Origin: Isurus oxyrinchus
Lineage: Eukaryota
Assembly (NCBI GenBank): GCA_026770705.1
Contig: JANJGN010000018.1
Location: 51,584,001 to 51,648,000, forward strand
Direction: 5' to 3'
Length of the DNA stretch: 64,000 nt
Shown: in pieces, positions 5,354 through 35,693 of the stretch
Layout of the letters: every line of letters starts with the position of its first letter
Numbering within the stretch: the stretch's first letter is position 1
Position numbers and translations under genes: made by a program
Notes under the pieces: model-generated
Databases searched by the model: none
Told to the model about the DNA's origin: nothing
Seen by the model: the letters and a program-made list of their open reading frames with translations, nothing else

Positions 5354-5437
5354 CTATGTCATCGAATATACATTATGGTGTTGAATAACTGGGACATTCG
5401 CCCAATTGTCATAACTGGCATAAGATCCACATGTATC
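5354..5437 (-). CDS. Exon 6 (putative terminal): Tyr-rich cytoplasmic tail end
   Basis: Acceptor attgttcttccag|; phase-0 frame reads DTCGSYASYDNWANVPVIQHHNVYSMT*, matching the phase of the exon-5 donor. AATAAA lies ~230 nt downstream. Confidence 0.5.
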   Translation of the reverse strand, partial: DTCGSYASYDNWANVPVIQHHNVYSMT

Positions 5438-6189
5438 CTGGAAGAACAATATTAACACCATTTGCATCACTTTTCTACTGAAGTTAGAATGGGTGATTGG
5501 GAAACCTCCATGGAAATTGTTTCTTTATAGTATCTATGCATTGAATGAGGTTTTGGGTTATTAGACTAGATATTTTGAGCTCTGAGTCACCAGCTATTTC
5601 TGAAAGTTGATCTCAAGTCCCCTCCAATTTGAAGTGTACCTTTATTTGCCCAGCAGCAAATGATAGCAAGACCAATAAATTATAATGGTAACTTTTGCCC
5701 TGTACACTGGCAACTAGCGTATACCATATGCTACTACATGAATTCACCCTCTCTCTTTCTCTCAAAAGATGTACTGAAATGTACAACAAGAGTCATGGAT
5801 CTTGAACAAATAAAGAATTTAATTTACACAAGGTAGATGACCAAATATTACACAATTTAGCACAGAGTTAGATATTCCCCTACACAGTCTGATATATAAA
5901 ACAAAGATGGTGCATACTTTCTTGCCTTAAACAGGTGTCCACTTAATATAAACCTTCTCTAACTCAATTCCCTTTGCCAAATTTTCACTCAGTTAAAAAA
6001 ATACACTCAGCCCTTCATCGTTTCCGAGATTCATTCACAGGCTACAGTCAGAAGAACTGCTCTTGTTCTGCCACTGTAATTTGCTGGAAGTGTAGTGTCA
6101 ACCTCTGTTTACACATGTAAATAGGGTTTCTGTGAAACATCCAGTGAAGTCTGGTGAGGGGAATGGAAACAGTTCTGAGGAAATTCCCA

Positions 6190-7655
6190 GCCTGTGCAAT
6201 TTCAGAGAAGGCCATTGATTATTAAATTGGGCAGATAGATGCTGGATGAAATTGAACAGGGAGAAGTGTGAAGTGATACATTTTTGAAGGAAGAATATGG
6301 ATTATAAAATAGAAAAGGTAAAAGGAAGGAAAGGAAAAAATAAATGTACTAAGTATTAAAATTGTAAAAAGAACTAAAGGAGCAGACAGACAAACCTTTA
6401 AAAGTGGAAGGGCAAATTGATAATGTTGGAAAAAGCAAACATTTGGCATCCTAGGTTTTATAAATAGGGACACAAAGTACATGAGAAAGTGGTAACATAA
6501 AAACTGTATGTATCATTGATTAGGCTACAGGTTGAATATTATATCCAGGTTTGGGTGCTCTTTGTCACTGTCACAGGTGATTCATTTGGATGACACCAGG
6601 AATGTGACGCTAGAGAAATCAGGACTCTTCTAATTATTGGAGGGAAGATAAAGAGGAGCTTGATAGGTATTTGGAATTCTGAGGGGTCCTAATGGTGTAA
6701 GTAAGGAAAAATGATTTCCGCTGATTAGTGACTCAGTAACAAGAGGGCATAAAGTAGAATGATCACCAAAAGAATAAGGAGAAAGATTAGGGGGAGAATT
6801 TTCTCCCCGGAGGGGTTGGGTGGGAGCAGGCGCGGGTGTACAGGCAGCTGATCGCTGCTCGTGTTCGTCTGGGCGCTGTCACTTTACATGGGTGGGCCAA
6901 TTAAGGCTAGCCCAGAGTGACACGCACCCAGAAGCGCTGAGCGCTTCTTGTGTGGGCGGGAGGGGGGTTGCCTGATCCGGGGCCTGTGCTCTTTCATGCA
7001 TGCGTGCAAAAGAGCACAGAAATTTCCCTGAGGCACAGGGAGCTTAGTTTAAGTTAAAAAAAAAACTTAATAAAGGAAAAAAATGTATAAGAAACTGTCA
7101 CAAGCTGGACATGCCTATTAATTTTATTAAAAAATTTTACAAGACTTTATAAAACTTCATGAAACCTCATCCCACCTGTGGATGAGGTTTCATGATAAAT
7201 ACGAAGGCTGCGTAGGCTCTTCGCCTGCCCGCCAACCTTAAGGTTGGATGGGCAGCTCAGCTAATTATTTTAATTGATAGTTAAATGGCCTTAATAGGCC
7301 TTTGACAGTTCAGCGGGTGCACAGCTGAGGCCAAACTGAAAATCTGAATGACACTTGGTGACATCGGGGCACACGCTTGATGTCACCACGTGTCATTTTA
7401 CACCTTGGCCCCGCTTGCCGAGCCGAAGATTTTGCCCTAGGATTTTTTTCATGCAGAGTTGTTATATGGAGTGCCCTACTAGTGGTAGAAACAAGTTGCA
7501 TTTTAACTTTTAAAAAGAAAGTGATTTTTTAAAAAAGAAGAATATGGGAAGAGAGCAACAAAATGGAACAAGGTGAATCACTCTTTCAATAGACAAGCAC
7601 ATGAATGATGGACCAAATGGATTCCTTCTGTGCCATAAAATTCTATGATTCCAAA
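6190..7655 (+). mobile_element. Old CR1-clade LINE 3' fragment, split by a MITE
   Basis: Degenerate RT C-terminus (W.D.W.MK...KCEVIHF) and a CR1-type 3' UTR that continues across the 6791-7437 insertion. Confidence 0.7.
6791..7437. mobile_element. Harbinger-type MITE (647 bp)
   Basis: TIRs GGGGAGAATTTT / AAGATTTTGCCC and a 3-bp TSD TAG (6788-6790, 7438-7440). Subterminal sequence resembles the ends of the 14772-20220 Harbinger. Confidence 0.85.
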
Positions 7656-8383
7656 AGTAATTCTTGTCAGTAGTTAATTAAACAAGTTACTGTTTGTAAC
7701 CAGTTAACATAGGTAAGGACAGTCTATAAAACTGTAAGCCAACTTACATATTTATGCACTGAAGTTGTCCACTTAGCATTCTTGAAAATGAATGCTAGAA
7801 GCAGGTTCACCATTGCCCTCTGACACAGGTGCTGCTAGATTATAGCAAGTCATTACAAAGTCACATCAGCTACAGACAAAAGCTCAGCAGCAGTACCTCT
7901 AGGGATACATCTCAGGCTGCCAGATAAGGCTGGAAAACGCAGCCTTGGTGTTGAGCTGTTTTCCCTCCCCTAAAAGACACTTAAATAACCCTGCTGCCCC
8001 TTTGTAAGAAGTTAGTATGCCTCCATCTCCTTAGCATGTCTTTGGAAGCCAGTATGCCATATTTTCGAGAAGTCATAGGTACAGGAACAAACGCTGGAAT
8101 GCCCAGCTTCTCAGTGCTGGTGCTTTTGTTTGGAGTGGCCGGAAGCTCCACCCCAAACAAAGGCTACTTCAATTCCTGATATAAGGCAAAGCCTGGCATA
8201 TCTAAGTCCCGACCTAGTTTGCAGGCTTTCCACTACATTCTCATCAGAGTTACAGCAGGAGTATGTAGAAAGCATCAAGGATTTGTATCCCCTTACTGAT
8301 CAAGCGATTAAAAAAAAAGATCACTTTGGCATAACTGACATCATTACATTTTTACATGAGTTTGTTCACACTTATTGTGGTAC

Positions 8384-8460
8384 CCTCCCCATACTTTCAT
8401 AGACATCCTCATTCTCACGTTTTCCATTTTTATGGGATTGTTCATCCTTGGCTCTTTTAC
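8384..8460 (-). CDS. Exon 5: cytoplasmic tail with acidic Tyr motif EDVYESM
   Basis: Acceptor ttttttatctcaacag|; phase-1 frame reads (S)KRAKDEQSHKNGKRENEDVYESMGR. Weak donor AGG|gtacca; if it is not used, the frame reads VPQ and stops at 8372. Confidence 0.65.
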
Positions 8461-10779
8461 CTGTTGAGATAAAAAATATATAATTATGGTGAATACTTCT
8501 TCAAGAAATGGGTGAAAAATGATATTTACATACAATTACACACTGAACTTGAGTTGTAAGATGTGATGAGTGTTTTCCATTTGACTAGGAGCTTTAGAAT
8601 ATTGCCAAATCAAATCTGTTTTCCCCTATTATTATGTAATTATTTTATACTCTCCTTCTCCAAAACCTCCCCACACCCTCAGATTAGAGGGTAAGCAGGA
8701 GGTCTTAATAGGTGGTCTTAAAAAGCATCCTGCAGAGACGCCTCCCATTTCTGGAACAAAAGGACGGCTTTTTAAAAACATTATTTAAAATGGCATTTTC
8801 TAATAATGCTTTCATTGATGGCATAGCTATGATTATCGTGAACTCACCACATGGGGAATCATTGGCAAACTCCAGAAATGTGCAGTAGAGGTCTGACAAA
8901 CAATGCTTGATCCTGGCCTCTTGAAGGCATAAGTAAGCAACACTATAGGTAACTCTTTACCATGCTAGTAGGCTTAAGGCAGTGGCAATTGACTTCCATA
9001 ACGAGCATGCAAGTAAATCACATAAGGAAGCAGCTGACACTGCACCATTTAGACCCAAATTCATGACCTTGATTCAAGTGATAAATGTCCTGTATTGGTA
9101 GATATGTTCAGCCTACCTTCCTGTTATAGACAACTAGAATCATTTAATTTGACCATTGTTATTTAATAGAAATGCCTCTGGTCTCCGAGAACAAACACTA
9201 ACTCCCTTTTTATTCCCTATTTTAAGTAGAGTGCAGCATCCAAATAAAAGCAGGTATTTTTAGCTGCAAGGAAAACATATTATCACAAGCTATATTGAAA
9301 GCACCTTGACAGTGTGTATCATTAAATAGCTTTCTGCAAAATCCATTCTACCTCTCCTGCCCATCAGGGAGTAGTGGGTTTAAATTGAGGCCAATGTCTC
9401 AATTTGATTCTGCTGTTCTATAGATTGCCACTTTCACTTTGATGTCAAGAGGTTTCTGATGTGCATCAAAATGAAAATAGTGGTCTAACTTGGAAGTCAG
9501 TTCCTGATCTGACTCCTGAGACCAATGAAGTTTGGAGGCGTGAGAAACTGTCTGGTAGGAACTCTCACATCAATTAAAGTTCCCAGCAAGTGTTGCATGT
9601 CTGTGACTTATTGCAATGTTACATTTGAAAAATATACAGGCATTATTTAGACTAAGCATATAATATTTATCAATTAAAATGTAAATGGTTTTCCCCAGCA
9701 CTCCTAACATTAAAAATGAGCATCCAAGCATGCATAAGCAAAACTCCAGGCGATCAGCTGTAACTGGGGATGACAGCTGTCCATTACACTACATGAATAT
9801 TGGTTTCAGATCAGCACGAGCTGTATAATGGCAGCCTAACTGTACTTAAATAATTCTAATTACACGTTGCCAATCGAATTCTGTCAGACCAGTCTCTCTA
9901 AAGCTAGCTTCCTTTCTCTCCCCCAGTCAGTCTTTTAAATTTTCATTGCGGTTACAGTGTCACCTGAAATTGTGGTACTTTGAGATAAATCTACACTGGA
10001 CAAATTTCATACCACGAAAGCAACAAAAATATTACTGCCAAGAATGATTGCCTTGAAATTCTGATTTATAATTTTATTTCCAGAGTTTCCAATTTCCTGA
10101 ATGGCTGAGGGGGGAAAAAAAGAACTGCATTGAGTGGCCTGGGACGGGTGATCTAAAAGGATAGCAGCTTCTGGTTTCACCCATGAAGATACCAGAGAAT
10201 CAACCTGTCAGTGGGTCACAGGCTGCTTTTGCATTACACTATGACCACTGAAGTCAATGAAGATATCAGTGCCAAAGCCAATGTAATTTTCTTCCATATA
10301 CTTGTCAAGTTGCTTTTCAAAGCCATTAGCAATCTCTATAGGAAAACCATAGCTAGTATTTTCCCAGGCATTGGGGGAGATTTTAACATTTTGGCCTGCT
10401 GGGAGTGAGGGTGCCTGGTCCCACACAGGAAACATGGGCCTCCAGGTTTTCCCACATTGTGGAGTTTTTCAGCAGGTGACAACACTGAGAGGTTCCCCTC
10501 TCAGAAACCAGGCTTTGTTCCAGTAGGACAGAGAATGTCGAAGAAGGAGCCTCAGGACCAGGTAGATCTGGAGGACTCAGGAATCAGAGGTTAGAGGGAG
10601 ATTGGAGACCCAGGAGTGGTGGAGGCAAAAGCTTGGACACCCAGGTTTAAATTTGAAATGGTGGGGATATGAGGCATGCATATAATAATACTTAAATTGT
10701 TAACCTGCCTCCTGGAAGTGGGTTGGCCACTTGCGCAACCCCATCCTGCCTCTGGTAAAACTGGAAATATAATGAAAGA

Positions 10780-11225
10780 TAGCATTTATATCTTGCCTTT
10801 CACAATCACAGGATGTGACCAAACTCTTCACTGTGAATGAAGTATTTCTGAAGTATAGTCCTCTTGTAATGCAGAAAACTCAGCAGCCAATTTGACACAG
10901 TAAGCTCCCACAAACAACAATGTGACAATGATCAGATAATCTGTTTTTGTGATGATTGAAGAATAAATAGTGGCCTGGTCACCAGGATTACCTTCTCTGC
11001 TCTTCTTCAAAATAGTGACATAGAATCTTTTATGTCCACCTGTTAGGTCAGACAGGGCATTGGTTTAATGGTTCACCTGAAAGATGGCATCTCTGACAGT
11101 GCAGCATTCCCTTAGTACTGCACTGGCATGTCAGCCTAGATTTTTTTGTGTCCAAGCCTCTGGAGTGGTTCTTGAACCCACAACATTTTGACTCAGTCCC
11201 AAGTGATAATTGAACCACAGCTGTC
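10780..11225 (-). mobile_element. DeuSINE-family SINE (SacSINE1-like)
   Basis: Deu-domain-like core (ATCTTTTATGTCCACCTG...GGTTTAATG..CACCTGAAAGATGGCATCTCTGACAGTGCAGCATTCCCTTAGTACTGCACTGG) and a tRNA-like head with GGTTCAAG at the high-coordinate end. Confidence 0.7.
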
Positions 11226-12370
11226 AGAGGCAGAGAAGTGGGTGGTTAGCAGAAGGTTGGACTCAGATTCAGATTTTTAACACTTCAACCTTCCAACCCA
11301 AATCCACAAAATTTTTGAGGTTAAGATTCCTACCAATGCATCTGAACATACCTGTATGATTTTGAAATGCTACACTTCAATTCTTGAAATCTTAGAATGT
11401 ATTATGTCTTTTCTAAATAATTATGCTCTGCCTACACATCATTTTATGTTAGTACTGAATATCAAATAGGTGTGTGAACAAGATATCAACCTGAAACATA
11501 ACTCTGTTCTCTCCACAGATGCTGCATGACCTGCTGAGTATTTCCAGCATTTTCTACTTTTATTTTAGGCTTCCAACATTTGCGTATTTTGCTTTTTGAA
11601 CATATGAATTAGGAACTGGAGTAGGCCACTTAGACCCTTGAGCCTGCTCCGCCATGCAATAAGATCTTGGTTGATCTGAATGTAATCTTAACCCTGCATT
11701 CCTGCCTACCCTCAATAACCTTTCACCCCCTTGTTAATCAGGAATCTATATAGTTTTGCCTTAAAAATATTCAAGGGCTCCACTTCCACCGCTTTCTCAG
11801 GAAGAGAGTTCCAAAGACTCACTACCCTCTGAGAGAAAAAAAAAAATCTAATTCCTGTCTTAAATGAGTGACCAATTATTTTTAAAGAGTGGCCTCTAGT
11901 TCTGGATTCTCCCACAAGAGGAAACATCCTCTCCACATCCATCTTGTCAAGACCCCTCAGGATCTTAAAGGTTTCAATTAAGTCACCTCTTACTCTCCTA
12001 AATTTCAGTGGTACAAGCCTAACCTGTCCAGCCTTTCCTCATAAAACAACCCGCCCATTCCTTGTATTAGTCTAGTAAGCCTTCTCTGAACTGTATCTAA
12101 TGCATTTACATCTTTCTCTAAATAAGGAGACCAGTACTGTACGCAATACTCTAGATATGGTCTCGCCAATGCCCTGTACAACTGAAGCATAACCTCCCTA
12201 CCTTTGTATTCAATTCCCCTTACAATGAGTGAAAACATTCCATTAGCTTTCCTAATTACCGGCTGTACCTGCATACTAACCTTTGATTCATACAATAGGA
12301 CACCCAGACCCCTCTGAATCTCAGAGCTCTGCAATCTCTCACCAATTAGATAATAAGCGTCCTTTTTATT

Positions 12371-13642
12371 TTATAGATAAAAACAAAAAAACTGCGGATG
12401 CTGGAAATCCAAAACAAAAACAAAAACAGAATTACCTGGAAAAACTCAGCAGGTCTGGCAGCATCGGCGGAGAAGAAAAGAGTTGACGTTTCGAGTCCTC
12501 ACGACCCTTCGACAGAACTTGAGTTCGAGTCCAAGAAAGAGTTGAAATATAAGCTGGTTTAAGGTGTGTGTGTGGGGGGGCGGAGAGAGAGAGAGAGAGA
12601 GAGAGGTGGAGGGGGGTGTGGTTGTAGGGACAAACAAGCAGTGATAGAAGCAGATCATCAAAAGATGTCAGCAACAATGGTACAAAAGAACACATAGGTG
12701 TTAAAGTTAAAGTTGGTGATATTATCTAAACGAATGTGCTAATTAAGAATGGATGGTAGGGCACTCAAGGTATAGCTCTAGTGGGGGGTGTTTTTTTTTT
12801 AAATAATGGAAATAGGTGGGAAAAGGAAAATCTTTATAATTTATTGGAAAAAAAAGGAAGGGGGAAACAGAAAGGGGGTGGGGATGGGGGAGGGAGCTCA
12901 CGACCTAAAGTTGTTGAATTCAATATTCATTCCGGAAGGCTGTAAAGTGCCTAACCGGAAGATGAGGTGTTGTTCCTCCAGTTTGCGTTGGGCTTCACTG
13001 GAACAATGCAGCAAGCCAAGGACAGACATGTGGGCAAGAGAGCAGGGTGGAGTGTTAAAATGGCAAGCGACAGGGAGGTTTGGGTCATTCTTGCGGACAG
13101 ACTGCAGGTGTTCTGCAAAGCGGTCGCCAAGTTTACGTTTGGTCTCTCCAATGTAGAGGAGACCACATTGGAAGCAACGAATGCAGTAGACTAAGTTGGG
13201 GGAAATGCAAGTGAAATGCTGCTTCACTTGAAAGGAGTGTTTGGGCCCTTGGACGGTGAGGAGAGCTATACCCACTAGAGCTATACCTTGAGTGCCCTAC
13301 CATCCATTCTTAATTAGCACATTCGTTTAGATAATATCACCAACTTTAACTTTAACACCTATGTGTTCTTTTGTACCATTGTTGCTGACATCTTTTGATG
13401 ATCTGCTTCTATCACTGCTTGTTTGTCCCTACAACCACAGCACCCCCCCCCACCTCTCTCTCTCTCACTCTCTCCGCCCCCCACACGCACACCTTAAACC
13501 AGCTTATATTTCAACTCTTTCTTGGACTCGAACTCAAGTTCTGTCGAAGGGTCATGAGGACTCGAAACGTCAACTCTTTTCTTCTCCGCCGATGCTGCCA
13601 GACCTGCTGAGTTTTTCCAGGTAATTCTGTTTTTGTTTTTGT
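12371..13642 (-). mobile_element. 5'-truncated Penelope-like element with GIY-YIG endonuclease and inverted pseudo-LTR
   Basis: ORF 12898-13275: NLVYCIRC..C.LLYIGETKRKL..RF.EH...HF...RKLEEQHLI..LGTL.P.GMN. The ~370-bp near-identical inverted arms span ~12412-12785 and 13271-13642. TSD TCCTTTTTATT at 12360-12370 and 13643-13653. Confidence 0.92.
13537..13575 (+). ncRNA. Minimal type I hammerhead-ribozyme-like motif in the Penelope pseudo-LTR (antisense copy at 12481-12519)
   Basis: AGTT-CTGTCGA-A-GGGTC(ATGAG)GACTC-GAAA-CGTC-AACT: stem I AGTT/AACT, 5-bp stem II, palindromic ACGT stem III and GUC cleavage triplet. The core has U in place of A6. Confidence 0.65.
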
Positions 13643-15007
13643 TCCTTTTTATTCTTCCTGCCAAAATGAATGATTTCACATTTGCCCACATTGTACTCCA
13701 TTTGCTAGATCTTTGCCCACTCACTTAACCTGCCTATGTCACTTTGTCAGCTCCTTACACCCTCCTCAAAATTTACTTTCTTACCTATTTTGTGCCATCA
13801 ACAAATTTAACCACCATTCCTTTGGTCCCTTCATCCAAGTAAATTGTATAAATTGTAAAAAGTTGAGGCCCCAGCAATGATCCCCATGACACACCACTCG
13901 TCACATCCTGCCAACCAGAAAAAAGACCCATTTATACCAACCCTCTGCTTCCTGTTAGCTGACCAATCTTCTAGCCATGCCAATATGTTACCCCCTATAC
14001 CATGAGCTTTTATTTTCTGCAAAATCTTTGATGTGGCACTTTATCAAATGCCTTTTGGAAATCTAAGTATGGTACATCCACCAGTTCCCCTTTACCTGCA
14101 GCATATGTTACTCCTTCAAAGAACTTCAATAAATTGGTTAAACATGATTTCCCTTTTACAAAAGCATGTTGACTCTGCCTGATTGCTTTGAATTTATCTA
14201 AGTTCCCTGCTATAACATCCTTAATAATAGCTTCTAACATTTTCCCTATGACAGATGTTAGGCTAACTGGCCTATAGTTTCCAGCTTTCTGTCTCCATCC
14301 CTTTTTCAATAAAGGAGTTATATTTGCTATTTTCCAATCTAATGGAACCTTACCAGAATCTAGGGAATTTTGGAAAATTAAAACCAATGCATCAACTATC
14401 TCACTAGCCACTTCTCTCAAGGCCTTAGGATGAAGTCCATCTGGACCTGGAGATTTGTCAGTCCACAGCCCCAACAATTTGCTCAATACCACTTACCTAG
14501 TGATGGTAATTTTCCCAAGCTCCTCCCTCCCTTCCATTTCCTGATTCACAGCTATTTCCGGGATGATCCCGAAGCAAAATATCTGTTTAATTTGTCCACC
14601 ATCTCCCTATTTTCCATTATCAATTCTCTAGACACACTCTCTATAGGACCAATGCTCACTTTATTAACTCTTTCCTTATTTAAGTATCTATAGGAACCCC
14701 TATTATCCGCATTTATGTTACTAGCTAGCCTTCTCTCGTACTGTAATTTTTCCCTTCTTATTAATCTTTATGGCCAAAATTTTCCATTTGGCGGGTGGGT
14801 GGAGCAGGAGTTGACGTGGACCTGATCGGTGCCCTTGATCGGTGCCATGCCGCCATTTTCCAATTAAGGCCCGCTCAGCATATTTCCAACTCCCGTGGAT
14901 AGCGGGAATGTGCGGGCAGCGGCGGGTGTGCACAGACTGCCGGGTCCAATGGTGACCCAGCAGTCTGTTTAAAAGAAGGCCTGGCAGCCTCCAGTAGGCT
15001 GCTCACA

Positions 15008-18000: not shown

Positions 18001-18180
18001 TATGGACCTGGCAGATCCCTCCCAGGCGGGACCAGCACAAGCTCCACGGGCCAGAGGACAGTTGCCAAGGTAATCGAGGCCAACAGGACAGCAGAGTCAG
18101 CAGGCTGTCTCAGAAGCCACTCTGAGCGATGGGGCGGCACCAAGACGTAGCTTCTGTAAACGTAAACATAAGGCTCCTGA
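15008..18180 (+). pseudogene. Harbinger Myb/SANT-like gene (3 exons, disrupted)
   Basis: CPRFSDDCLAALFEEV...AWEEML..VSSRDVVRRT*IQCCKRFNYL. Exon 1 ends 15345 (|gtgagt), exon 2 spans 15970-16126 and exon 3 starts at 17218. In-frame stops are present. Confidence 0.8.
16225..17085 (-). mobile_element. Highly diverged CR1 3' fragment inside Harbinger intron 2
   Basis: LQADTDGLVRWC...QMEC....CEVKYLGRRN resembles the CR1 RT C-terminus; CR1-type 3' end near 16230. Confidence 0.65.
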
Positions 18181-18505
18181 GGCACACCATGGGTTTCTCA
18201 CTGGTACTTTTGTGTTGGCCCTTGATTCAGGAATTATTATTTGTTCATGCTTGAAAAACATTTTGGTTTGATTTTGTGTGACCTTATGATGGTGAAAATT
18301 AAAACCAGATGTTACTATGGCTGAGGGTGGCTCCTTTGTTCTGCATTCACATGTTTTACATACATATCATGAGTGTTTGAGTGGACATTGAGGTTTGTGT
18401 CCAAAGCCCTGAGTTGCAGCTGATGACGTGGCAGATGTAGCACTTAAGTGCCGAGTATGGAAGTGCCAGGCAAGGCTGATACTCCAGATCCATTTGCGTG
18501 GAGCT

Positions 18506-19720
18506 AGCTGAAGGTTCGTTGGATTAAAGTGTCCTGGGCATCCCTGCCTCCTTGGTGTAGTCCCAGGTCAGCGTTCAGCCCCTCATCATTCTCCTATGCT
18601 TCCTTATCCTCAGAATCAGTGCTGGACTCATCATGTGCAGCCGCATCCACTGTGTCAATGTCTTCATTGTCCATTGCATCCCCCCTTTCCAACGCAAGGT
18701 TGTGGAGAGTGCAGCATGCAACCACTATCACCAAGACATGATCTGGGGGGTACTGGAGTGCGCCCCCTGAGCGGACCAGGCATCGGAAGCACATCTTGAA
18801 AAGACCGATGGCTCTATCCACCACAGCCCTTGTGGTGCCATGACTCCTATTGTAGTGCTGCTCAGCTTCTGTTCTTGAATGGCGGAGAGACATCATGAGC
18901 CACCTTCTGAGGGGATAGCCCTTGTCACCCAGCAGCCAACCATCCAGCCAGGCTGGAGCACTGAAGAGCCCTGGCACCTGGGAGTGTCTGAGGATGTTGG
19001 CATCATGGGAGCTGCCTGGGTATCTTGTAGAAACTTATAGAATCAGCATCCTGTGATCACACACTATCTCCACGTTCATGGAGTGGAAGCTCTTCCTGTT
19101 GATGAAGGCACCGGGTTCACCTGCTGGCGCCTTGATAGCCACATGTGTGCAGTCTATTGCATCCTGGACATGGGTGAAGCCAGCAATAGCCATGAAGCCT
19201 CTGGCTCACTGTGTTTGGCTTGCCTGGTCCCAGTGGAAGTGGATGAAGGTCAATGCCCGTCTGAACAGAGTGTCTGCAACCTGCTTGACACAAGTGTGGA
19301 CAACTGATTGGGAGACACCGCAAAGATCACCTACCAAGCCCTGGAAGGAGCCAGAGGCATAGAAGTGGAGGATAACTGTAAGCTTCAGAGCCGTTGGCAT
19401 GGGTGGAGAGATCTCAGGGCCAATCATCTGGCAGGTGTGGTGTACTGTCTCCCTTGACAGCCAGTACCTCCTTCAGGACTGCATCTCAGTCACATTGAGG
19501 TAGCTGCTTCGCCGCCTGTATACCCTGGCAGCAGGATAGTGGCGTATTCTGCAGCCCCTTCCACCTTGAACTCCTCTTGGCCCTGCGCCCCTTGCGCCTG
19601 TGCCTGTACTCCCAAAGGTGGCTCCCCTGGAGGCTGATTGTCCACTCCTGGTCTCCTACTTATTCTAACTCTCCCTTCCTGTTCAGAGCAGCTGCCTCTA
19701 GTGGACATGTCAGAACCCAT
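18506..19720 (-). pseudogene. Harbinger DDE transposase (HARBI1-like), frameshifted
   Basis: Motifs FYASGSFQ..VGDLCGVSQS.VH.CV.QV, WLLGDKGYPL, EQHYNRSH..TR.VV.RAIGL.K..FRCL and CCTLHN. Confidence 0.92.
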
Positions 19721-22137
19721 ACCCAAGCTAAAGGGAGGCCTCTGAAAAGCAGCAGGCCCAATAAAGATTACTGACTGCAGACTGCTGAGCTGAAGGTTAA
19801 AAGTACACAGAAAGTTGCTGGTATTCATTCCGAACTGCTATAGATCACACAGGACAGTTTAAAACACTTTCTGCAATAAATGCTCACAGACCAGATTGAC
19901 AACTGCACTGAGCCCTCTTATCCCACCCGTGGATGCGTTTTATCAAAAAGTCTCTTACCCGCCTGCCCGTTGCACCTGTGCGCCGACCTGAAGAATGCAA
20001 GGGTGCCTGAAAATCGGCATTGATTGCCGATTTAAGGGCCTTAACTAGCCTGTTAATTAATGGCGGGCATACATTGAACTTCATCGCGCGTCCGCCCAGC
20101 AAAATACCACGATGGCGCGCGGTGACGCCAGGACCCTCACTCGACATCACCACGCATCATTTTACACGCTGACATGCGGGACCCCCCCCCCCCCCCCATG
20201 TCAAGCAGAAAATCCTGCCCTATGTCATTCTTTGCTGTTCTTTATATTTTTTCCAATCTTCTGACCTGCCCCTGTCTTTGTGTAATTATATGCCTTTTCA
20301 TTAAGTTTCATACTGTCTTTATCTGTTTTATTTAACCACGGATGGTGGACCCTCCCCTTGGAATATTTCTTTCTCATTGGAATGTATATATTCTGCATAT
20401 TCTGAAATATTCCTTTAAATGTCTGCCACTGAACTTCTAATGATATATTTCTTAACCTCATTTGCCAGTTCACTTTAGCTAGCTCTGCTTTCATGCCCTC
20501 ATAAATGTCTTTAAATTTAAAATATTAGTCTTGGATGCATTCATTTCTCCCTCAAAATGAATGTAAGATTCAATCATATTATGATCGCTGCTATCTAGGG
20601 GTGCCTTCACTATGAGGTTATCAATTAATCCTATCTTGTTGCTCTTACCAGGTCTAGTATAGCCTGCTCTCTGGTTGTCTCCAGAACATGCTGTTCTAAG
20701 AAACTATCCCAAAAACATGTATATGAATTACTCTATATACTGTATCCACTACAAGAAAATAAGGGTTTTCTTTGGATATTCAAAACAGTTTATATTCTGA
20801 TGGTGTTGTACATTTTGCTTACATGACATTTACCGGTGCAGGCATTGATAGAATGAGTTATTTTGCACTCTCAGTATGAGTTGTTAGCTGTGTTGACTTA
20901 TTATGAAGCATGCCATCGTTTAAAGTCCATTACATTGTAATTGATGTAAAGTAATTGCGATATGCTTTCCATATATGCACACTGGTTTACATGTCAGTGC
21001 TATCAGCATTATGTAAAAGATTGGCGTGCAATGTTTGTGGTTCATCAGGCCACAAGATGTCTGTGATGTGACCTGTATTTTCCAAAGCTGTACAACAACC
21101 ATGAACAATACAACAGTGAAGATGTGGCTACAAAATTGCAGAAAGCATTATTTGATGTATGATTATGTTTATCTATACTATTAGTTTTAAAAACTACTTT
21201 AATAGTTACACAGGGTTATTTATAATAAATGCAATATTGATCTTATGTGGTGATAAATTTTAACTATATTATTTCTAGAGAACATTTCAGAACATTTTCA
21301 TCTGTAAAATTTTAAGTTCGATTTTTCAAAGCCATTACAATTATAGATGGTTATGAATGGCTTACTGGGTGGTAAAAAAATGCTGTAAGGATTCTGGGTG
21401 AAATGAGATTAAGCAATCACAGCTAGCAAATACAGTGATGCAAAACATTTAAAAATGCATTAATATTTTTTGCACCTCTGTGCAATCACCACTATACTTT
21501 ATTGATAAAAATTAACTGTCAGGAAGAGAGTAATTTAACTTATCTAATTCATCTAATCATGATATGTGACCTCTTTAATTATGTTTATTGTTATGGTACA
21601 TTAATGTTTTAATTAGTGATTTAAACCTCTCCAACTCCCTTTCCTCCCTAAAACTCCCAATTTTGATCAGGCTTTTCTTCAGCTTTCCTAATATCTAATA
21701 TACCTTCTCTGGCTCAGTCTCTATTTTTTCCTAGTTATCCCTGTATCACATTAACAGCTCTGTATAAATGCAAATTTTCTTCTTGTAAAAAAATGGGGGG
21801 GCATTCCCACAGGTCTTTGCCAAAGATAGGGCAAACTAGGGAGAGAATCCCTGCAGAAATTTAACACAAGACTTTTAAGCATTTCTCCCTGATTTTTGTG
21901 CAGTCATTTACAGCCTCTCAGTGAATCTGCATTGGTATGTCAATTTTTGAACTGGTAATCCACATTTTATAAATAAATTGCAGAGTGACCAATCAACTGT
22001 TATGGGCATTTACAATATTGCGTTGTTTTTCTTTAAGTTAATTCTTGGATATAGATATTGCTGACAAGCCACATTTATTGTCCATTTCTAGTTGTCCTAG
22101 GAAGGTGATGGTGGACCTTCTTCTTGCACTGTATAGC

Positions 22138-23393
22138 CATCATGAAATAACAAATGTTTCGTTATATTTTCTGGTTTATTGTGAAATAGGTTTATGGGGT
22201 AAGTATAGTTGGGTCTATGTGTGATTTAATTACATTTGGAGTCAAGTAGACTGCAAGTTGAAAATCATCAAAAGAAGTTAGGTGTTTGACATGCTAATGA
22301 GTAAACATGGGGCAAAATTTTTACCTCAGTGGGCATGTGTCTCCCTGAACCGCTCAAGTGTAAGATGACGTGTGTTGATTTTGGGTGAGTGTCCTGATGT
22401 CAATGTGCAGTTGCATGATATTTCAGTCGGCAGGCGCATGTGGGAATTGGCAGCCTGCCCACCAACAATTAAAAGGCCTATTAAGGTGGGATGATGTTTC
22501 CAACATCAAATAAAAATAAAATAAAATGTTTCAAATTTCATTTATAACATGTCCCTACTCATGTGACAGGGTAATTGGCCTGCCAATCGCAGGTGGTGGT
22601 CAGCTTCCCGATAACGCCCATCAAGCCCGTCCGACAAAGGCAAAATTCTGCCCATGGATGCTGGCTTGGCATGTAAGGTGTGAAGGAAATTTGCATTTTT
22701 AGATAAATGAAGGGATATTTGGATTTCAATGGGATCTTAATCAGTTTACAACTAGTCAGATAAACAAGGCTAAGGAATATGTTGATTTTTCCCGAAAGTT
22801 ACTGGCAATATTGGCACCATGAAATTGTTTGTTATGAGGAAGATACAGTTTCAAAGACATATGGAACAATCAAATTTACATATTAAAAAGAGAGAAACAA
22901 ATATAAAGGAGAATGAAAAGTTATGTGTCAGAAGGCCATGTAATCTAACAGAAGTGTTTGAAATAGCCTTAATGAAGCCTCCAGCATTTGTGCAGAAGTG
23001 TGCTGTCTAACAAAGCTGAAATTGGGAAAAAACCATTTGGAATTTCATTATCCAGGGTATTGTGTTAACTTGATGAGTTTGTTTTAAATCTAAAATCTAT
23101 TGTGGATCATAGCCTTAAAAGAAGTGTCACTGGGGGTCAGCTTAATTAGGAATTTTAGAAGTTATTATAGTAGTAATTGTAGCCTTATATATGTGTTTGA
23201 AATCTTTTATTTTGTTAATAGATATTTTAATTTAATTTCTAAAATCTCCAAAGGTCTTTGTGGACTTATTACTTCTGAATTCAACACACACATCTCGTAA
23301 TAAACACAAATTGTAAAACCATTGTGATAGCGCGACCAAGTTTCCCTTGTGGATTTGGTCCGTCTGGCACACATTATCTGCCATGTCATAACA
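22138..23393 (+). mobile_element. Probable solo LTR inserted in a SINE-like repeat
   Basis: Ends ...GTCATAACA, has AATAAA near 23300, and flanks read ATAGC/ATAGT. The split host repeat matches an intact copy at ~26180-26400. Confidence 0.5.
22310..22653. mobile_element. Harbinger-type MITE (344 bp)
   Basis: TIRs GGGCAAAATTT / AAATTCTGCCC and TSD ATG (22307-22309, 22654-22656). Confidence 0.85.
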
Positions 23394-23710
23394 ATAGTAC
23401 TTTGATACAATTGAGTGGCTTGATAGATTACTTCAGAAGGCAGTTAAGAGTTAAGCACATTGGTGAGGTACTGGAGTCCACATAGATCAGGGTAAGGACA
23501 GCAGGTTTCTTCACTAAAGGGCATTTGCAAATTAGTTATTTTTTCTGACAATCCAACCGCTCCAATTTACTGATACCAGCTGAATTTTGCTATTTACACA
23601 TTTTTTTTTAAAAAAGAGATTCAAATTTTTTTCAATCCCCTAATGCTCCATGATTTGTACCTAGCATAGAATCAATTTTTTTTTTGCTCTCCCAACAATT
23701 TAATTCACAA

Positions 23711-23924
23711 CAAAAACAGAATTATCTGGAAAAACTCAGCAGGTCTGGCAGCATCGGCGGAGAAGAAAAGAGTTGACGTTTCGAGTCCTCATGACCCTTC
23801 ATGAGACTTGAAATGTCAACTCTTTTCTTCTCCGCCAATGCTGCCAGACCTGCTGAGTTTTTCCAGGTAATTCTGTTTTTGTTTTGGATTTCCAGCATCT
23901 GCAGTTTTTTTGTTTTTATCTCTT
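23711..23924. mobile_element. Palindromic Penelope-derived mini-insertion
   Basis: Two inverted copies of the PLE 3' terminus joined inside the hammerhead motif. 14-bp TSD AATTTAATTCACAA (23697-23710, 23925-23938). Confidence 0.9.
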
Positions 23925-23959
23925 AATTTAATTCACAATTTTACGTTGTCTTCACTTAC

Positions 23960-24133
23960 TTTGCCTCCTTGACTTTTTCTTACAATATCTCATAATAGAC
24001 CATGTTAATACAGCCAAGATGATCAGTGCTCCTGCTCCAGAGAATGCACCTATGAAACCACAATTCACCATGTGGTAATCTAAAAAGCAATTCAAAGATA
24101 TTTGATGAGAGCAGGTGGCACTGAACAGATATT
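23960..24133 (-). CDS. Exon 4: transmembrane segment and basic stop-transfer
   Basis: 174-nt phase 1-1 exon between ctttatttacag| and |gtaagt. Encodes YLFSATCSHQISLNCFLDYHMVNC-GFIGAFSGAGALIILAVLTWSIM-RYCKKKSRRQ. Confidence 0.85.
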
Positions 24134-24723
24134 CTGTAAATAAAGGTGACCATAATTCAATAAGCATCTGCAACAGGAATTGTGCAATTTACATTTTTAT
24201 AATCAGTTATTAATGGACAATGTTATCTTATAGGTTTTGATCTCAGTCAAACGTTTGTATAAAGCAAGTTAAGTCGCTAACTACAACAATTAACTCTTTG
24301 ACCAGGAGAAATGGAAGCCTGTTGATATGCATTCACTCTTATCTACATACTGACAAAGAATTCAGTTTAAACACCTCCAACAATACAGCACTCACTCTGC
24401 CACAGGATTGTCTGCCTACATATGAGCTCAAATCTTGTTTTGGGCTTTGTGGCATACAAAGGTATTAAAAGAGATAAACATCTTTTAGTTTTGTCAAAAG
24501 GCTGCAACTTTCTCTACATATTTCAATCAAGTATATAAAGAGGATTGGAGTGAGGTTTAGAATGGTTGGCAGAAAGAACAGAATATCAGAAATTATAGAA
24601 ACATATTAACTTTTAAACTTTTAAACTTGGGATGTTATAAATTCAATTTGCTGTTTCTGGTGTTAGAAGGTATGTACTAGTTTTACAAAAAAGAGCAGTC
24701 TGCTTGTCAAACAGCATTCTTAC

Positions 24724-24804
24724 CATTGGTTTCATTGGCTTTCACAAGAGTTAGTTTAGAGTCTGCACTTGCATTCCACCAATCACCTATTATCATCACT
24801 CCTC
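24724..24804 (-). CDS. Exon 3: extracellular stalk
   Basis: 81-nt phase 1-1 exon between gtatttccag| and |gtaaga. Open frame (G)GVMIIGDWWNASADSKLTLVKANETN with two N-glycosylation sequons. Confidence 0.65.
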
Positions 24805-27800
24805 CTGGAAATACAAATGCTCATGAGGAATTAATAACAAAACATGGATTGGCCTCTTGTCACAAATGCACATTTTTTGTGAATTAGGATACTGTCAGAT
24901 GTATGAGAAATTACAAAGTGCAGGCAATTTATTAATGATGGTTAGTTGATCTCCCATATCTTTACTCACAGATGGAGACCAGTGAAAACATGCTGAAGGC
25001 TAGATAGGAATTGGAGACTGAGGAAACTACCAAGGAGGGTGAACACAGTCCTAGAAAGAATCAGCAGGGAGGTCAGCAGAGACTGCAGCTAGTGGCAAAT
25101 GAAGACATTTTGTGTGGTACATGCAGCCAAAACATATTTTTTATTTGCTATGGGAATTATTTAACTTCCATTGGCTGGGCCACTGTCAGATCTTTTACAT
25201 GATTGTTGTTTTTACATGGACCAATCCAGTTTGATTTGGCAACTGGTCCACAGGCCAATGAAGCCTCCAAGACTCACCAAGATGGACTAGTAACATAAAT
25301 GGGACTGTATTTGTGCTAATGGTTACCTAATGATTGTCATTTTTAAAACGTGGTGTGAAGAAAATTACTATAGCTGTTAGAGCTATAAATGTGAAAGGAC
25401 TTGCAGATATGTTAAGCAGCAGGTGCTTGGCTACTTTTAGAAATCTGACAGTATCCTTATCTAATTTAATATCAAGCCCAATAACCTCACAAACTACAGC
25501 AATCATTTTATTCAGTTTATAAAAACTCCAAACTGTAGGAGCATAGCCTACTGCAATTGTATGGGTTTTCACCAGTGAGATATACTCTATAATGCAAACA
25601 AGCCCAAGGACCAATGAAGGAAAATATGGATTTATGATTAAATGATGCTAACAGAGAGTTGGGGAGCTAGACCCATAAATGTTTGCTGCTGGTTGATTGT
25701 CATGTAAAATTACAATCACTGCACAAGTATGATGCTGTGTTCATATTGCCTTTAAACAGCGTGCCTCTGCTGATTCCTCTCATACTGGTCTTGCACAGAC
25801 ATCACTACCTCTAATTAAACATGCTAGAAGTATTAAGGCAGAACACGAGGAAGATCCGTTTGAATGGCGCTAATCCCTTGCTAAATCTATGAAGCAAAGC
25901 AATTTAAAAGTGAGAGAATAGTACACAGTTGTTAAGACTTCTGAAACAGGTGCAATGATAAAAATGCCAAAAGCCATTATGTTCAGCTTGTTAACCTGGC
26001 AGAATTATCAACATATTTCCTTTTCCAAATTAGGAAAGGGATTAATTAAGAACTTGTTGAAATTGGTGTAGCAGCTTGTAAAGTGGCTGTAGGACTAGCA
26101 GAGGCCCACCCATATGCTTACCCTGCCCACAATTCTTGACTTCAGCTTGCTGTGACCAATTATTTTGTTTAATGTCACTTATGCATTTATTACCCATTCC
26201 TAATTGCCTGGAGAAGGTGGTGGTGTTGCAGTTCGTGCTTGTAGCAGTTTGATACAACTGAGTGCCTTCTGCTGCTAGCAAGCCAGTTAAGAGTCAAGCA
26301 CATTGGAGTGGGGCTGGATTCACATAGGCCGACTTGATAAGGAGAGCTGGTGTCCTTCCGGAAAGTTGTTACTGCACCAGTTGGGTTTTCTTAAACAATC
26401 CAACAACTTTACATGATGACAGCTTTTTATTTAAACTGACTTCAAATTCTCAACCAATTACAGTATTTCACCAAAGCTTTGTATGCTTTGTGACGAGGGC
26501 TTGACAGGCAGACTGGCTCAAAACTGAGGAAAATTGGTCCCTCTTTGTTAAAACATTTTCTTCCTTCAGCCTATGCGACCACTTCTGCTCGTATTGTTTC
26601 GTTGTGGAGCCCTTTTATTGCTCTTCTTTCTGCAAATGTGTACTAGGTACCTCCAACAATCCCTACATTGTCCCTGACTGTCCGCCAGTTTTTCTCCGGC
26701 TGGTTTTCCCGTCAGATAGAAAGCCACTTGGGAGGGAGAGCTTGCGGACCCTCATCCCCACCCGACCCCCCCCCCCCCCCCCCCCCCCCCCATCCCAACC
26801 CCCTCAGTGAAAAGTACTGCCATAGCCACTTAAAGAGGTTGTTGCTTGCCGCAAAAAAACCATCATCTTCACAGAATTTAAGAAACTCTCTTTAACCTTT
26901 AAATACTGCCTGGGAATTTCCTATTTACGTGATCGTTACACTACCACGACCGTGCGAAAGCTGAACAATGCGGCTTTCAGCATTGCCAGCTCTTGTCTGA
27001 CCACCCCCCACCCCCCCACCCCCCACAGAAAATAAAGGCAGAAATTGAATTATGTTTAAAGGGAAGAGGCGATGAAAGGAAAACCTGTGAGATGCGATAA
27101 CGAAAAGAGAACTAAAAAAAAAGAAATTTAGGTCAGAGGCTTTAATGAGAATTTTAGGTATCGACCTTCAAAACGCCAGACGTGGAGGTGTACATGAATA
27201 ACTCATTCGCTTTCAAAGGGCTCAGGCTACCACTTGTCTCAATGACAGATTTCTTTTGACCTTAATGCAGACTAACTGGTATTTTGACGACCCTTCCTCC
27301 TGTTTGCACAGGTACACAGATTCCTGCGATGAATATCTGTATTTGGCACGGATATCTTTCCTGTGTTTACATTGTTTCTTTTCCCAATGACAGAACTCCT
27401 GGCAAAAATGCCCTTTCCCAGACATTTGAGCACTGAAATTTCTTTGAGATGGGTGCCCGGAATAATATCGTTTAATTGTATACGTTTCCTTTAGTTTTGT
27501 CGAATGTCTATTTTACGATATGTTTTTACTAGTTGTGGGTTTTTTTAAAAAAACGCGGTCTTTTTGGTTTGGTGCTGGGTCTGGGGTAACCTCGGATATT
27601 CCTTATGGATTCGTTCGAAAAAGCAGAAAGGCCAAAGGAAGAAGTGGTTCAATTCTCATTGCCCTTTGTCGAGCCGGCTACAAGGAGCTCTGAGAATTGT
27701 ATTGATCACAATAGAGGTCGTGTATATGTAATCTAAATTATGCGCTAACTGATGCACTTCAAAACGATTGGCGATAACAAAACGAGGTAATCATTTATAT

Positions 27801-28327
27801 TTCTAGTCGAAACTCTGGGCTGTAAAAATTGAGGTGTGGCAATATATAAACTACAATTTAGATTCGAGGATTCGATACTAAAGTAAACACAGCTCCCGGG
27901 TTCCCGATGGCGAGCAGCAATGGAAGGGGTTTGAAGGGGAGAATCACAGCTTTACAGTTCAGCCCAGTCTCTGCTCCAGTGGAGCTCCCCTGTGGAATCG
28001 TTGCATTGCTGAAACTGGGAGGTAATGATTTGAGGAGCGAGTTCTCGAGGCGGGGATCATTGATCTTACCTGGTCTATCGAGTAGTCTATATTTTGTTAA
28101 CGATGGATATGGATGACGACCTGTGAGTCTCAAGCCAAGACATCTCAAAATTTGCAAAACATTTTGCTCCAAGGATTTAATTGCAGAACAATAAGGTAAG
28201 GCCATCCTGCTTACAATTGTGTTTCCCCAATAGTTTCATTTTATGAAAATTAATACTTACAAATTCGGTTCAAGGGCTGCAATGATTAATCTCCCGCATT
28301 TAACACCGAATAGGTGGGCATACTCAC

Positions 28328-28675
28328 CGAGCACATTCACAGTCATGTCCTGGGTTAACTCTTCTCCATTCTGATAGGTGACGGTGCAGGAATATATCCC
28401 GGAATCGTTCAGCATCGCATTTTGGATGGAGAGCGAGCCGTTCGGATAAATGTGTGTCCGCTGACGGTAATCGCTGAACCAGTGTGGTTTCTGGTTGCCT
28501 TTATCCAGCATCAACTGAACGATAGATCGCCGGGTCGTGCGGCTTACATATTTCCACTCTATTGTATGTATCTGTTCAGCGATGACCACGGATGGCATTG
28601 CCAGGAATACGGTCCCATTAACCGTTCCATTTACAACCTTGGGGTTGGTTCCAGTGGCCGCTGCTTGCAGTACAG
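28328..28675 (-). CDS. Exon 2: V-set Ig domain (CD2/SLAM/CEACAM/HEPACAM/VSTM5-like, B-strand Cys absent)
   Basis: 348-nt phase 1-1 exon between tctcttccag| and |gtgagt. Translation includes VNGTVNGTVFL, TIEWKY, YRQRTHIYPNGSLSIQNAMLNDSGIYSCTV and MTVNVL, i.e. V-set C-strand Trp, NGSLxI and DxGxY motifs, plus several NxT/S sequons. Confidence 0.92.
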
Positions 28676-28779
28676 CTGGAAGAGATCGTACACACAAGGT
28701 TAGGCAACAGATTTATTTCGATGCACCACAATAGAGGGACGAGGCAACAAGAATGAGCCAGTTGTGCGCAGGGAGTTAC

Positions 28780-28834
28780 CTTGCAGCCACCAACTGTACA
28801 GAGCAGCCATCGGGGGGGTTCGGGTCCAGTTCAT
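28780..28834 (-). CDS. Exon 1 (leader peptide) of a V-set Ig transmembrane receptor gene
   Basis: ATG at 28834 reads MNWTRTPPMAALYSWWLQ (second in-frame ATG at 28810), then a CAAG|gtaact donor in phase 1. A 104-nt intron joins it in frame to the Ig exon, giving ...WWLQAVLQAAATG-TNPK, which resembles a signal peptide. Confidence 0.65.
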
Positions 28835-34364: not shown

Positions 34365-34959
34365 ACTTCAATATTGGAGTCAGTGAGGGTAAAAATCAAC
34401 ACCAATCTTACAGATTGAAAATCCAGTCAGACAATTAATGGAGTGGGATTCCACTGAGATCAGTGGAAAGAAAAATCAAGTGGGGCATATAAGATCATAA
34501 GAAATAGGAGCAGGAGTAGGCCATTTGGTAAGATCATGGCTGATCTGATTGTGGCCTTAACTCCCAGCATCTACCCTTGGAAACAGATAAGCGAGACATT
34601 TACCCTAACCCTAACATTCAGATGCCACCACTTCTCAAGGGCAATTAGGGCAGTACATGCTGGAATAAAAACAGAAAGTGCTGGAAAAACTCAGCAGGTC
34701 TGGCAGCACCTGTGGAGAGAGAAACAGCATTAACATTTTTAGTCCAATATGGCTCTTCTTCAGGATAAATACAAGCGTTGCCAGTGCTGCTCACATCCCA
34801 TGAAAGAATAAAGAATTCTGATAAAGCACTATTGAGAGGGTTGGGTTTTAGTTGCAACATTATAGAAAGATTATTAAATATTATATATAATTATATAAGG
34901 ATAATCTCTATTGCTATAGAAAGGTGATCAAAGGCTGTGTATTTTGAGCTGACACCTAT

Positions 34960-35536
34960 CCTCAGTGCTGTTAGGTGACTAACTCCAGGCGGTAGCTCCT
35001 TGATCAGATTATCGGAGGCAGTGATGGAGTTTGGGAGGGAGAGGCCAGGCTAGAAGATGTCCCCAGGCAGGGCCAGCAGCTGGTTCCCAGACACATTGAG
35101 GCTGCTGAGGTGGAAGCAGAGGCCGAGGCCAGCGTGGATGGGGGGAGAGCCTGCTCAGGTGGTTAGCGCTCACATTTAGGCTGCTGAGCTGCTCCAGGAG
35201 GCCCAGGCTGTTGGGCAGGGAGCCAAGCTCATTCCCGGACACACTGAGGATCTGCTGGGCCTGCAGGTGCTCCAGCTCAGTGGGAAGGGTGACCAGCTGA
35301 TTTGACCTGAGCACCAGGCTCTGGAGCTGGCTCAGGCTGCAAAGCTCAGGCGACAGCTGCCGCAGGCCAGCCTCCAGCTCTAGGTTAATGAACAGCGACA
35401 GCTGGTACAGTCCATGGCCCAGGCTTCCCACCCGGACCTGCTCCTCCACCTCTGGACCCTGCAGCGCCAGCTCCCGCTGCCTCTCGGACAGAACCAGCTG
35501 GACCTCCGGCCACATAGCCCTGGCCACCACCACCAT
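34960..35536 (-). pseudogene. LRRC47: LRRC47-like 5' (exon-1-sized) pseudogene fragment
   Basis: WPEVQLVLSERQRELALQGPEVEEQV...LQSLVLRSNQL...LSVSGNEL..LP...LSSLNVSAN.L, and in another frame ITASDNLIKELPPGVSHLTALR, resemble my recollection of the LRRC47 N-terminus ([20 protein letters not shown]...). Frameshifts are present and no downstream exons were found. Confidence 0.8.
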
Positions 35537-35693
35537 CACAATTGGATATGGAGCAGCAGAACGGATGGCCAATCACCAAAGGAGAGTTTACATCCAGTGG
35601 TGCTCAGGAAATGCTGGAGTGGCGCTCCGGCAACACTACACCCCTGTGTTTATGAAATACTCAGCAGGTCAGGCAGTATCTTTGCAGAAAAAC

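Follow-up and report, generated by a model that had tools for sequence, protein, structure and literature searches.

A conserved single-V-domain receptor gene of cartilaginous fishes with a predicted PI3K-type tail motif

Members of the CD2/SLAM family combine an N-terminal V domain devoid of the disulfide between the B and F strands with a membrane-proximal C2 domain and a tail that is proline-rich or carries an immunoreceptor tyrosine-based switch motif (ITSM, TxYxxV/I). The CEACAM family has a disulfide-less N domain and a tail with an immunoreceptor tyrosine-based inhibitory motif (ITIM) or a two-tyrosine activation motif (ITAM), and CEACAM3 acts as a pathogen-decoy and phagocytic receptor. 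TIGIT and the other PVR-binding receptors retain the canonical disulfide, and their F-G loop carries T(F/Y)P; the tail of BTLA contains an ITIM and an ITSM. CD28-family members are defined, in a report on them, by a single extracellular V domain of the immunoglobulin (Ig) superfamily with a PPP or E-I-P motif in complementarity-determining region 3 (CDR3), and a G-strand GxG motif is given for several members only (PMC11599192). Here, we describe a gene on the minus strand of a 64,000-nucleotide stretch of the Isurus oxyrinchus genome (hereafter the window; assembly GCA_026770705.1, contig JANJGN010000018.1, positions 51,584,001 to 51,648,000 of the forward strand) that encodes a 230-residue receptor with one V domain and one YxxM motif in its tail.

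Among living groups with antibody, T-cell receptor and MHC immunity, the sharks are the oldest. For the second signals of their lymphocytes, a recent survey was limited to the CD28 family; judged by its sequence, the receptor described here lies outside that family and is a conserved candidate, encoded by a single-copy gene and with one tyrosine. One V domain together with a YxxM motif is a familiar architecture, and the receptor extends the catalogue without adding a new principle.

A spliced five-exon gene and its orthologues

The preliminary description of this locus had proposed six exons (28834-28780, 28675-28328, 24804-24724, 24133-23960, 8460-8384, and 5437-5354) with GT-AG introns, and these can indeed be rebuilt on the minus strand into an in-frame sequence of 819 nt and 272 amino acids (aa), with AG/GT at every site. 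A real spliced gene is present, but the start of exon 4 and the whole of exon 6 were wrong. A 1170-nt contig of the public run X1 carries the joints 28780>28675, 28328>24804, and 24724>24079; exon 4 thus starts at 24079 (120 nt) in this spliced contig and not at 24133 (174 nt). At adjoining record positions, an X1 contig that agrees in run, length, and depth spans 8462-7950 and has no joint at 8384. Because the record positions are contiguous and run, length, and depth are identical, the piece with exons 1-4 and the 8460-7950 piece were taken as one contig. As it runs across the proposed 8384 donor to 7950, translation ends at the TAA at 8374-8372, and the protein terminates in ...MGRVPQ. Corrected in this way, the gene comprises five exons with 693 nt of coding sequence, and its product has 230 aa in place of the 272 aa claimed; 223/230 residues are identical to Carcharodon XP_041066505. 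Since the V exon has one locus in the genome (the next matches show 31% and 26% identity), a retrocopy does not account for the spliced contig. The gene is genuine, spliced, and single-copy, and the other 81-nt and 174-nt exon candidates were ruled out by the same contig.

Junction reads had been named as the check on the proposed exons, and X1 supplied a spliced contig that links exons 1-5, with exon 4 in its 120-nt form, probably from RNA of a close relative. It should be noted that X1 was taken to be RNA as a guess, none of the runs being recorded as such. The run differs from the window at ~2% of bases, with three amino-acid changes that all equal the Carcharodon residues, and for these reasons its source is probably a close relative rather than the window species. 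In runs X14, X10, X11, X12, X13, and X8, no long part of the gene was found.

All five exons lie on the minus strand. The coding part of exon 1 (28780..28834, 55 nt) holds the ATG and the start of the signal peptide and is placed by its joint and by the alignment of orthologue N-termini; the 5' untranslated region (UTR) extends to at least 28887, where the X1 contig ends. Exon 2 (28328..28675, 348 nt), delimited by X1 joints and a Pfam match, encodes the end of the signal peptide and the V domain. Exon 3 (24724..24804, 81 nt), also set by X1 joints, encodes a stalk with two N-glycosylation sequons and is skipped in one Scyliorhinus isoform (P0010). Exon 4 (23960..24079) encodes the membrane-proximal Cys168, the transmembrane (TM) helix, Cys194, and a basic stretch. 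The terminal exon 5, at which the orthologues end too, encodes the cytoplasmic tail (coding part 8372..8460, 89 nt including the stop). A probable 3' UTR of ~2.5 kb (5818..8371) is tiled by X1 contigs at 7950-8462, 7717-7942, 7290-7664, 6383-6966, and 5854-6310, and would end near the ATTAAA at 5823-5818.

An initial protein search with the V exon returned five elasmobranch proteins of 222-249 aa, and further searches and cluster look-ups extended the orthologue set to 21 proteins from 14 chondrichthyan species, Callorhinchus, a chimaera, among them. If truncated or extended models are set aside, they measure 201-250 aa. All are automatic NCBI models, either 'uncharacterized' or labelled VSTM5-like, TIGIT-like, RAGE-like, or PSG22-like (the Heterodontus orthologue is 'VSTM5-like' and that of Hemiscyllium 'TIGIT-like'). 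The gene is thus real and ancient and already sits in NCBI without a name, in keeping with the earlier statement that no named orthologue can be assigned. Orthology is 1:1, with a single copy in the 14 species and no expansion, and V-domain identity between elasmobranch groups amounts to 50-68% (54-74/109 residues). A V-domain tree (33 rows, 110 columns) recovered the family with the chimaera outermost (89/63), a batoid clade (100/96), and a shark clade (97/88), and placed CEACAM-labelled V domains on separate branches; its deep forks are poorly supported, and the wider placement of the family is not given. Clade tests left the origin unsettled, with p-AU values of 0.137 for grouping with a V exon linked to MED17 and 0.074 for grouping with the paralogues on the contig of the window (C18).

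No bony-vertebrate orthologue was returned by word-based protein searches, in which the best non-chondrichthyan match had an E value of 0.11, nor was one present among the best 150 of 1,796 profile matches, down to E 1.8e-14. A distant orthologue could be hidden, because the profile matches listed are dominated by multi-Ig proteins. On these searches, the receptor appears so far to be restricted to sharks, rays, and chimaeras; it is lineage-specific, as had been suggested, but not narrowly so: from the lamnid sharks to the chimaera, each species has a single orthologue. Literature searches, whose coverage lacks most subscription journals, found no paper on this receptor, and the accessible part of PMC13262535 does not treat it.

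The six-exon, three-motif protein of 272 aa could exist as a minor splice form, which we regard as highly improbable. Both additional splice sites are valid and keep the reading frame, rare variants get dropped from contigs, and alternative tails are seen in the Narcine and Pristis orthologues. However, the 54-nt extension of exon 4 (24080..24133, minus strand) is intronic in the X1 contig and is at most a rare alternative acceptor; its 18 residues occur in 0/21 orthologous proteins (best local score 21, self-score 99). Likewise, the peptide of exon 6 (5354..5437, minus strand), with its SYDN and NVYSM motifs, is found in 0/21 (best score 26, self-score 156), the donor that would lead to it is read through in X1, and the exon lies ~380 nt past the probable poly(A) signal. 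Such frames also arise by chance: both YxN and YxxM are present in 18/4,970 acceptor-led short open reading frames (ORFs) on both strands of the 1.06 Mb read around the window (C18:51.18-52.25 Mb), so that a look-alike 3 kb from the real exon is unsurprising. Exon 6 has no contig cover in 4 runs, a gap that we did not count as evidence. A 273-aa Pristis isoform matches the 272 aa in length by coincidence, as its tail matches unrelated C18 DNA, probably a repeat.

The V domain and its nearest relatives

The product is a type I protein in which a signal peptide and one V domain are followed by a stalk and a TM helix; the tail measures 39 aa. From position and alignment, the signal peptide would comprise residues 1-27 and is weakly hydrophobic. 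The V domain (~28646-28329, residues 29-135) is recognized by Pfam as V-set (36.2 bits, cut-off 26) and as Receptor_2B4 (28.7 bits, cut-off 21). As described previously, the B-strand Cys is missing (21/21 proteins) and the F-strand Cys, here Cys115, is kept; the latter is conserved in 18/21 proteins and replaced by Ser in three Narcine isoforms. The canonical disulfide is therefore not needed. In X1 the V exon is spliced to the stalk exon and this to the TM exon, which bears out the proposed ectodomain with a single V domain and no C2 domain; the disulfide-less V domain is of the CD2/SLAM/CEACAM type. The TM helix spans approximately residues 168-191, with a hydropathy peak of 2.21 at residue 168 and a small-xxx-small pair (G172/G176), and is followed by the juxtamembrane Cys194 and a basic stretch.

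An AlphaFold (AF2) model of the V domain alone reached a predicted confidence (pLDDT) of 90, and the full-length model, poor beyond the V domain, a mean of 56.6. Compared with 48,161 representative chains, the V model matched ALCAM D1 best (Z 16.8, rmsd 1.6, 101 residues aligned), followed by NTB-A (Z 15.9, rmsd 1.7, 100 aligned), nectin-1 (Z 15.4), CD48 (15.3/15.1), TIGIT and CD244 (14.7), and CEACAM1 (13.4); the top Foldseek match was CD244. The modelled fold thus looks CD2/SLAM-like among disulfide-less domains, without fixing the family.

Like CD2, CD58, CD48, CD244, and NTB-A, the receptor has a V domain without the B-F disulfide and a Receptor_2B4 match; NTB-A, CD48, and CD244 are its best disulfide-less structural matches, NTB-A and CD48 lying within ~1.5 Z of ALCAM and level with nectin-1, and a calsequestrin marker lies on its contig too. 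Unlike these proteins, it has no C2 domain, no ITSM, and no proline-rich tail. The receptor is probably not CD2 or CD58 itself: it has no C2 exon, and a separate V + C2 pair is found at C18:41.54 Mb.

The receptor is like CD28, ICOS, CTLA4, CD28H, and CD28X in its single extracellular V domain, its TM helix, and the acidic YxxM motif of its short tail. However, its F-G loop carries neither YxC...PPP nor E-I-P (10/10 orthologues), and it lacks both the GxG of the G strand and the B-strand Cys. The markers fsd1/stap2, pudp/sts/anos1, man2b, slbp/tacc3, and prkab1b are not among the neighbours identified in the 1.06 Mb, where they were not searched by name. We rejected membership in the CD28 family on the missing CDR3 and GxG motifs, and by these sequence features the receptor lies outside it. 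Nor do the nine supplements of the family report contain any of four orthologue accessions, one gene id, or the tail motif (PMC11599192).

CEACAM3 and the CEACAM N domain resemble the receptor in their single disulfide-less V domain, TM helix, and tyrosine-containing tail, with 24-27% identity when structurally aligned; the F-strand Cys, however, is kept in most of the species with an orthologue. A role as a pathogen-decoy or phagocytic myeloid receptor like mammalian CEACAM3 would fit this common layout, and CEACAM N domains are the top single-domain PDB sequence matches and rank high by structure as well. Such a role nevertheless seems very unlikely for a conserved gene with one tyrosine motif and no two-tyrosine ITAM that is single-copy and 1:1 in 14 species, without expansion, and that lies outside a separate multi-V CEACAM/PSG-like cluster on contig C34.

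VSTM5 is similar in size and layout (V domain, TM helix, short tail), and clusters labelled VSTM5 are the top ESM Atlas matches (0.96), but the receptor differs in its YxxM tail. MED17 and VSTM5 are listed in one 0.5-Mb region in PMC8472390. In the Isurus genome, a MED17 exon was found at C11:89.10 Mb (E 3e-34); the V exon that lies 20 kb from the MED17 exons, at C11:89.14 Mb, is not that of the receptor. The MED17-linked position is thus taken by another V exon, and identity with VSTM5 was rejected. A wider possibility is that the receptor serves the adhesion of epithelial or nerve cells, outside immunity, and resembles VSTM5, HEPACAM, or the nectins, its cluster position being incidental. 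The Atlas scores, the first and third structural ranks of ALCAM and nectin-1, and a tree joining the family to the MED17-linked V exon that is not rejected (p-AU 0.137) all point that way. We consider it quite unlikely, as the VSTM5 position is filled, the neighbouring Ig genes resemble CD200, CD200R, and TIGIT, and V-domain identities of 50-68% reflect a rate that is more usual in immune receptors.

TIGIT and BTLA likewise have a single Ig domain, a tyrosine-containing tail, and a neighbourhood in the human CD200 region, but the receptor has no ITIM, ITSM, B-strand Cys, or T(F/Y)P motif. Identity with TIGIT was rejected in favour of a better candidate 0.6 Mb away at C18:52.21 Mb, an exon that has the TFP motif as well as the two Cys. 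BTLA sits beside CD200 in the human genome; no BTLA-type exon was recognized in the 1.06 Mb read around the window, and a positional link between the receptor and BTLA may exist.

A conserved YxxM motif and its possible function

The C-terminal motif D-V-Y-E-S-M-G-R-V-P (8378..8407, minus strand) contains Tyr222 in a YxxM context. In the alignment of ten orthologues, D220, Y222, M225, G226, V228, and P229 are invariant (10/10), and conservation along the protein is highest over the final 13 residues, with 6/13 invariant columns and a mean of 0.81, against 15/108 (mean 0.66) in the V domain and 0/31 in the stalk. The pattern D-x-Y-x-x-M-G-x-V recurs in 14/21 proteins and 12/14 species, including the chimaera. 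By sequence conservation, DxYxxMG(R/K)VP is the only conserved motif of the tail, so that of the CD28-like set of three docking motifs proposed earlier, YxxM (EDVYESM) holds, and SYDN and NVYSM were lost with exon 6.

According to PMC4263166, YxxM binds p85 of phosphoinositide 3-kinase (PI3K) and YxN binds Grb2. The residue at +3 is Met in 10/10 orthologues, while +2 varies among S, K, and N; YxN occurs solely as YENM, in 4/14 species, and the Hemitrygon motif is YVKM. Because +3 is invariant and +2 is not, p85 rather than Grb2 would be expected as the partner. The CD28X tail motif EYEDM resembles that of the receptor, and its YEDM has been interpreted as a PI3K site (PMC11599192).

We propose that the receptor is an activating leukocyte co-receptor whose conserved YxxM is predicted to recruit PI3K p85, a reading to which we assign a probability of about one half. 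Its V domain would bind a cell-surface Ig-family ligand through the GFCC' face, like CD2/SLAM-type domains, and the ligand would cluster the receptor. Cys168 and the small-xxx-small face of the TM helix might join it into a dimer, and Cys194 might be palmitoylated; both the dimerization and the palmitoylation are suggested by partial conservation, 7/10 at each column. A Src-family kinase would phosphorylate Tyr222, which is preceded by acidic residues, and the phosphorylated YxxM would bind the SH2 domains of p85 and lead to PIP3/Akt co-stimulation, as in CD28, ICOS, and DAP10. In the four species with YENM, Grb2 binding may be possible too. An immune function had been suggested in the preliminary description; what speaks for it now is the location in a CD200/CD200R/TIGIT-like cluster and no longer a three-motif tail.

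Several observations weigh against this proposal. A transcript was found in 1/7 runs, from a tissue that is not given and probably from a sister species. The motif is missing from 7/21 isoforms and from the models of 2/14 species (Mobula and Cetorhinus, both of which look truncated), and Cys168 is missing in 3/10 aligned orthologues, with Cys194 exact in 7/10. In PMC4263166, the YxNM of the membrane IgG tail bound only Grb2-family adaptors, and a YxxM need not bind p85. Binding of p85 does not account for the invariant G-x-V-P that follows the Met. The highest-scoring structural matches fall within a span of ~1.5 Z and include non-immune adhesion proteins, and the Atlas features tie the receptor to TIGIT (0.95) as well as to the VSTM5 clusters (0.96).

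A further point is that YxxM fits the YxxPhi endocytosis consensus too. The tyrosine motif might thus be mainly a sorting signal, for endocytosis through AP-2, and the protein a decoy or ligand-removing receptor like CTLA-4. The tail is short, has no second tyrosine motif, and carries this one 8-11 residues from its C-terminal end, and the Hemitrygon YVKM is of the CTLA-4 type, YVxM (PMC11599192). We judge this unlikely: sorting signals tolerate L/I/F/V at +3, yet the Met is invariant in 10/10, and acidic residues ahead of the Tyr suit, as is well established, a kinase site.

On the preferred reading of an activating co-receptor, a broader and rather doubtful scenario would have a CD2/SLAM-type V domain joined to a CD28-type PI3K tail in an ancient co-stimulatory family of jawed vertebrates. 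Its tail would have arisen independently of CD28, and the family would have been retained by every chondrichthyan group and been lost or become unrecognizable in bony vertebrates. The two single-V paralogues at C18:51.92 and 86.38 Mb might serve as ligands, in the way that CD58 does for CD2, and the receptor would be the activating partner in an ancestral CD200/CD200R/TIGIT checkpoint cluster.

Genomic neighbourhood

A CD200/CD200R/TIGIT-like cluster, with additional members, is already present in sharks. Along the 1.06 Mb, the order is an NSUN-type methyltransferase exon (which we take to be NSUN3), a syntaxin ORF (presumably STX19), two tandem nectin/CD200-type V exons, the receptor gene, a tyrosine-rich last exon, a V+C2+TM gene, a second related V exon, a further nectin/CD200R-type V exon, and a CD226/TIGIT-type V exon with a TFP motif. 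The NSUN-type, syntaxin, tandem V, V+C2+TM, and CD226/TIGIT-type neighbours are all found within 0.65 Mb. The receptor gene lies 50 kb from the CD200-type exons, between CD200-like and CD200R-like genes, and ATG3-, CCDC80-, and calsequestrin-type genes are on the same contig about 7.8-9 Mb off. We assume that this neighbourhood corresponds to the human 3q11-q13 block plus 1p13, with CD200, CD200R, BTLA, TIGIT, CD96, and CD2/CD58.

The tandem CD200/nectin-type V exons are similar to each other (C18:51.54 Mb, L039:5069-8407, minus strand) and are followed by a TM-like exon at L039:1515-1874. A pattern scan found no C2 exon behind them, and they are possibly a V-V form. A first CD200R-like gene lies at C18:51.773-51.789 Mb (L016-L018, minus strand), the C2 exon of this V+C2+TM neighbour having CD200R1 as its best match (E 5.7e-10), and a second at C18:52.07-52.10 Mb on the opposite, plus strand (L070-L073). 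The last exon with three tyrosine motifs (C18:51.735 Mb, L012:7214-7390, plus strand) gave a weak ESM Atlas score of 0.76 and was negative in Pfam; we assume a resemblance to GCSAM/HGAL. Genome searches with HGAL and C2-set returned nothing usable, nor did one with V-set, which was filled by antigen-receptor loci.

The second related V exon (C18:51.92-51.96 Mb, L055:6618-7004 and L059:1735-1914, plus strand; hhalign 96.9%) lacks both canonical Cys, has a likely TM exon 35 kb on, and was not among the database proteins returned. A third single-V paralogue of 233 aa (C18:86.38 Mb, L002; P0155 and P0167) has a different tyrosine-containing tail and is unnamed in Cetorhinus and Carcharodon. The TIGIT/CD226-type single V exon, with its TFP motif and both Cys (C18:52.21-52.24 Mb, L084:3659-4045, plus strand), lies ~0.6 Mb from the receptor gene; a TM exon is found at L085:1675-1776 and candidate tail exons at L086:5871-6038 and 9754-9969, each with YENV and not an ITIM. 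This gene is possibly a shark TIGIT relative with an activating-type tail.

Farther away, the V exon and C2-type exon at C18:41.54 Mb (L179:7020-8815, plus strand) have weak CD244-family scores and lie 190 kb from a cation-ATPase match and 10 Mb from the receptor gene; on sequence grounds the pair is a candidate for CD58 or CD2 in sharks. The stretch C18:41.74-42.14 Mb yielded no Ig exon. Broken frames at C18:51.843-51.848 Mb (L023:5299-9617, plus strand), which we take to be LTR-retroelement-like, gave no Pfam match for the one frame tested. Within the window, a leucine-rich-repeat frame at 34894-35572 (minus strand), whose N-terminus matches LRRC47 (E 2.5e-18, residues 18-125 to 7-120), continues in another frame after a break and is probably a decayed LRRC47 copy. 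Lastly, C34:10.8-12.6 Mb (L112-L115, L117) holds many near-identical disulfide-less V exons that match Heterodontus PSG22-like proteins, possibly an expanded shark CEACAM-like family.

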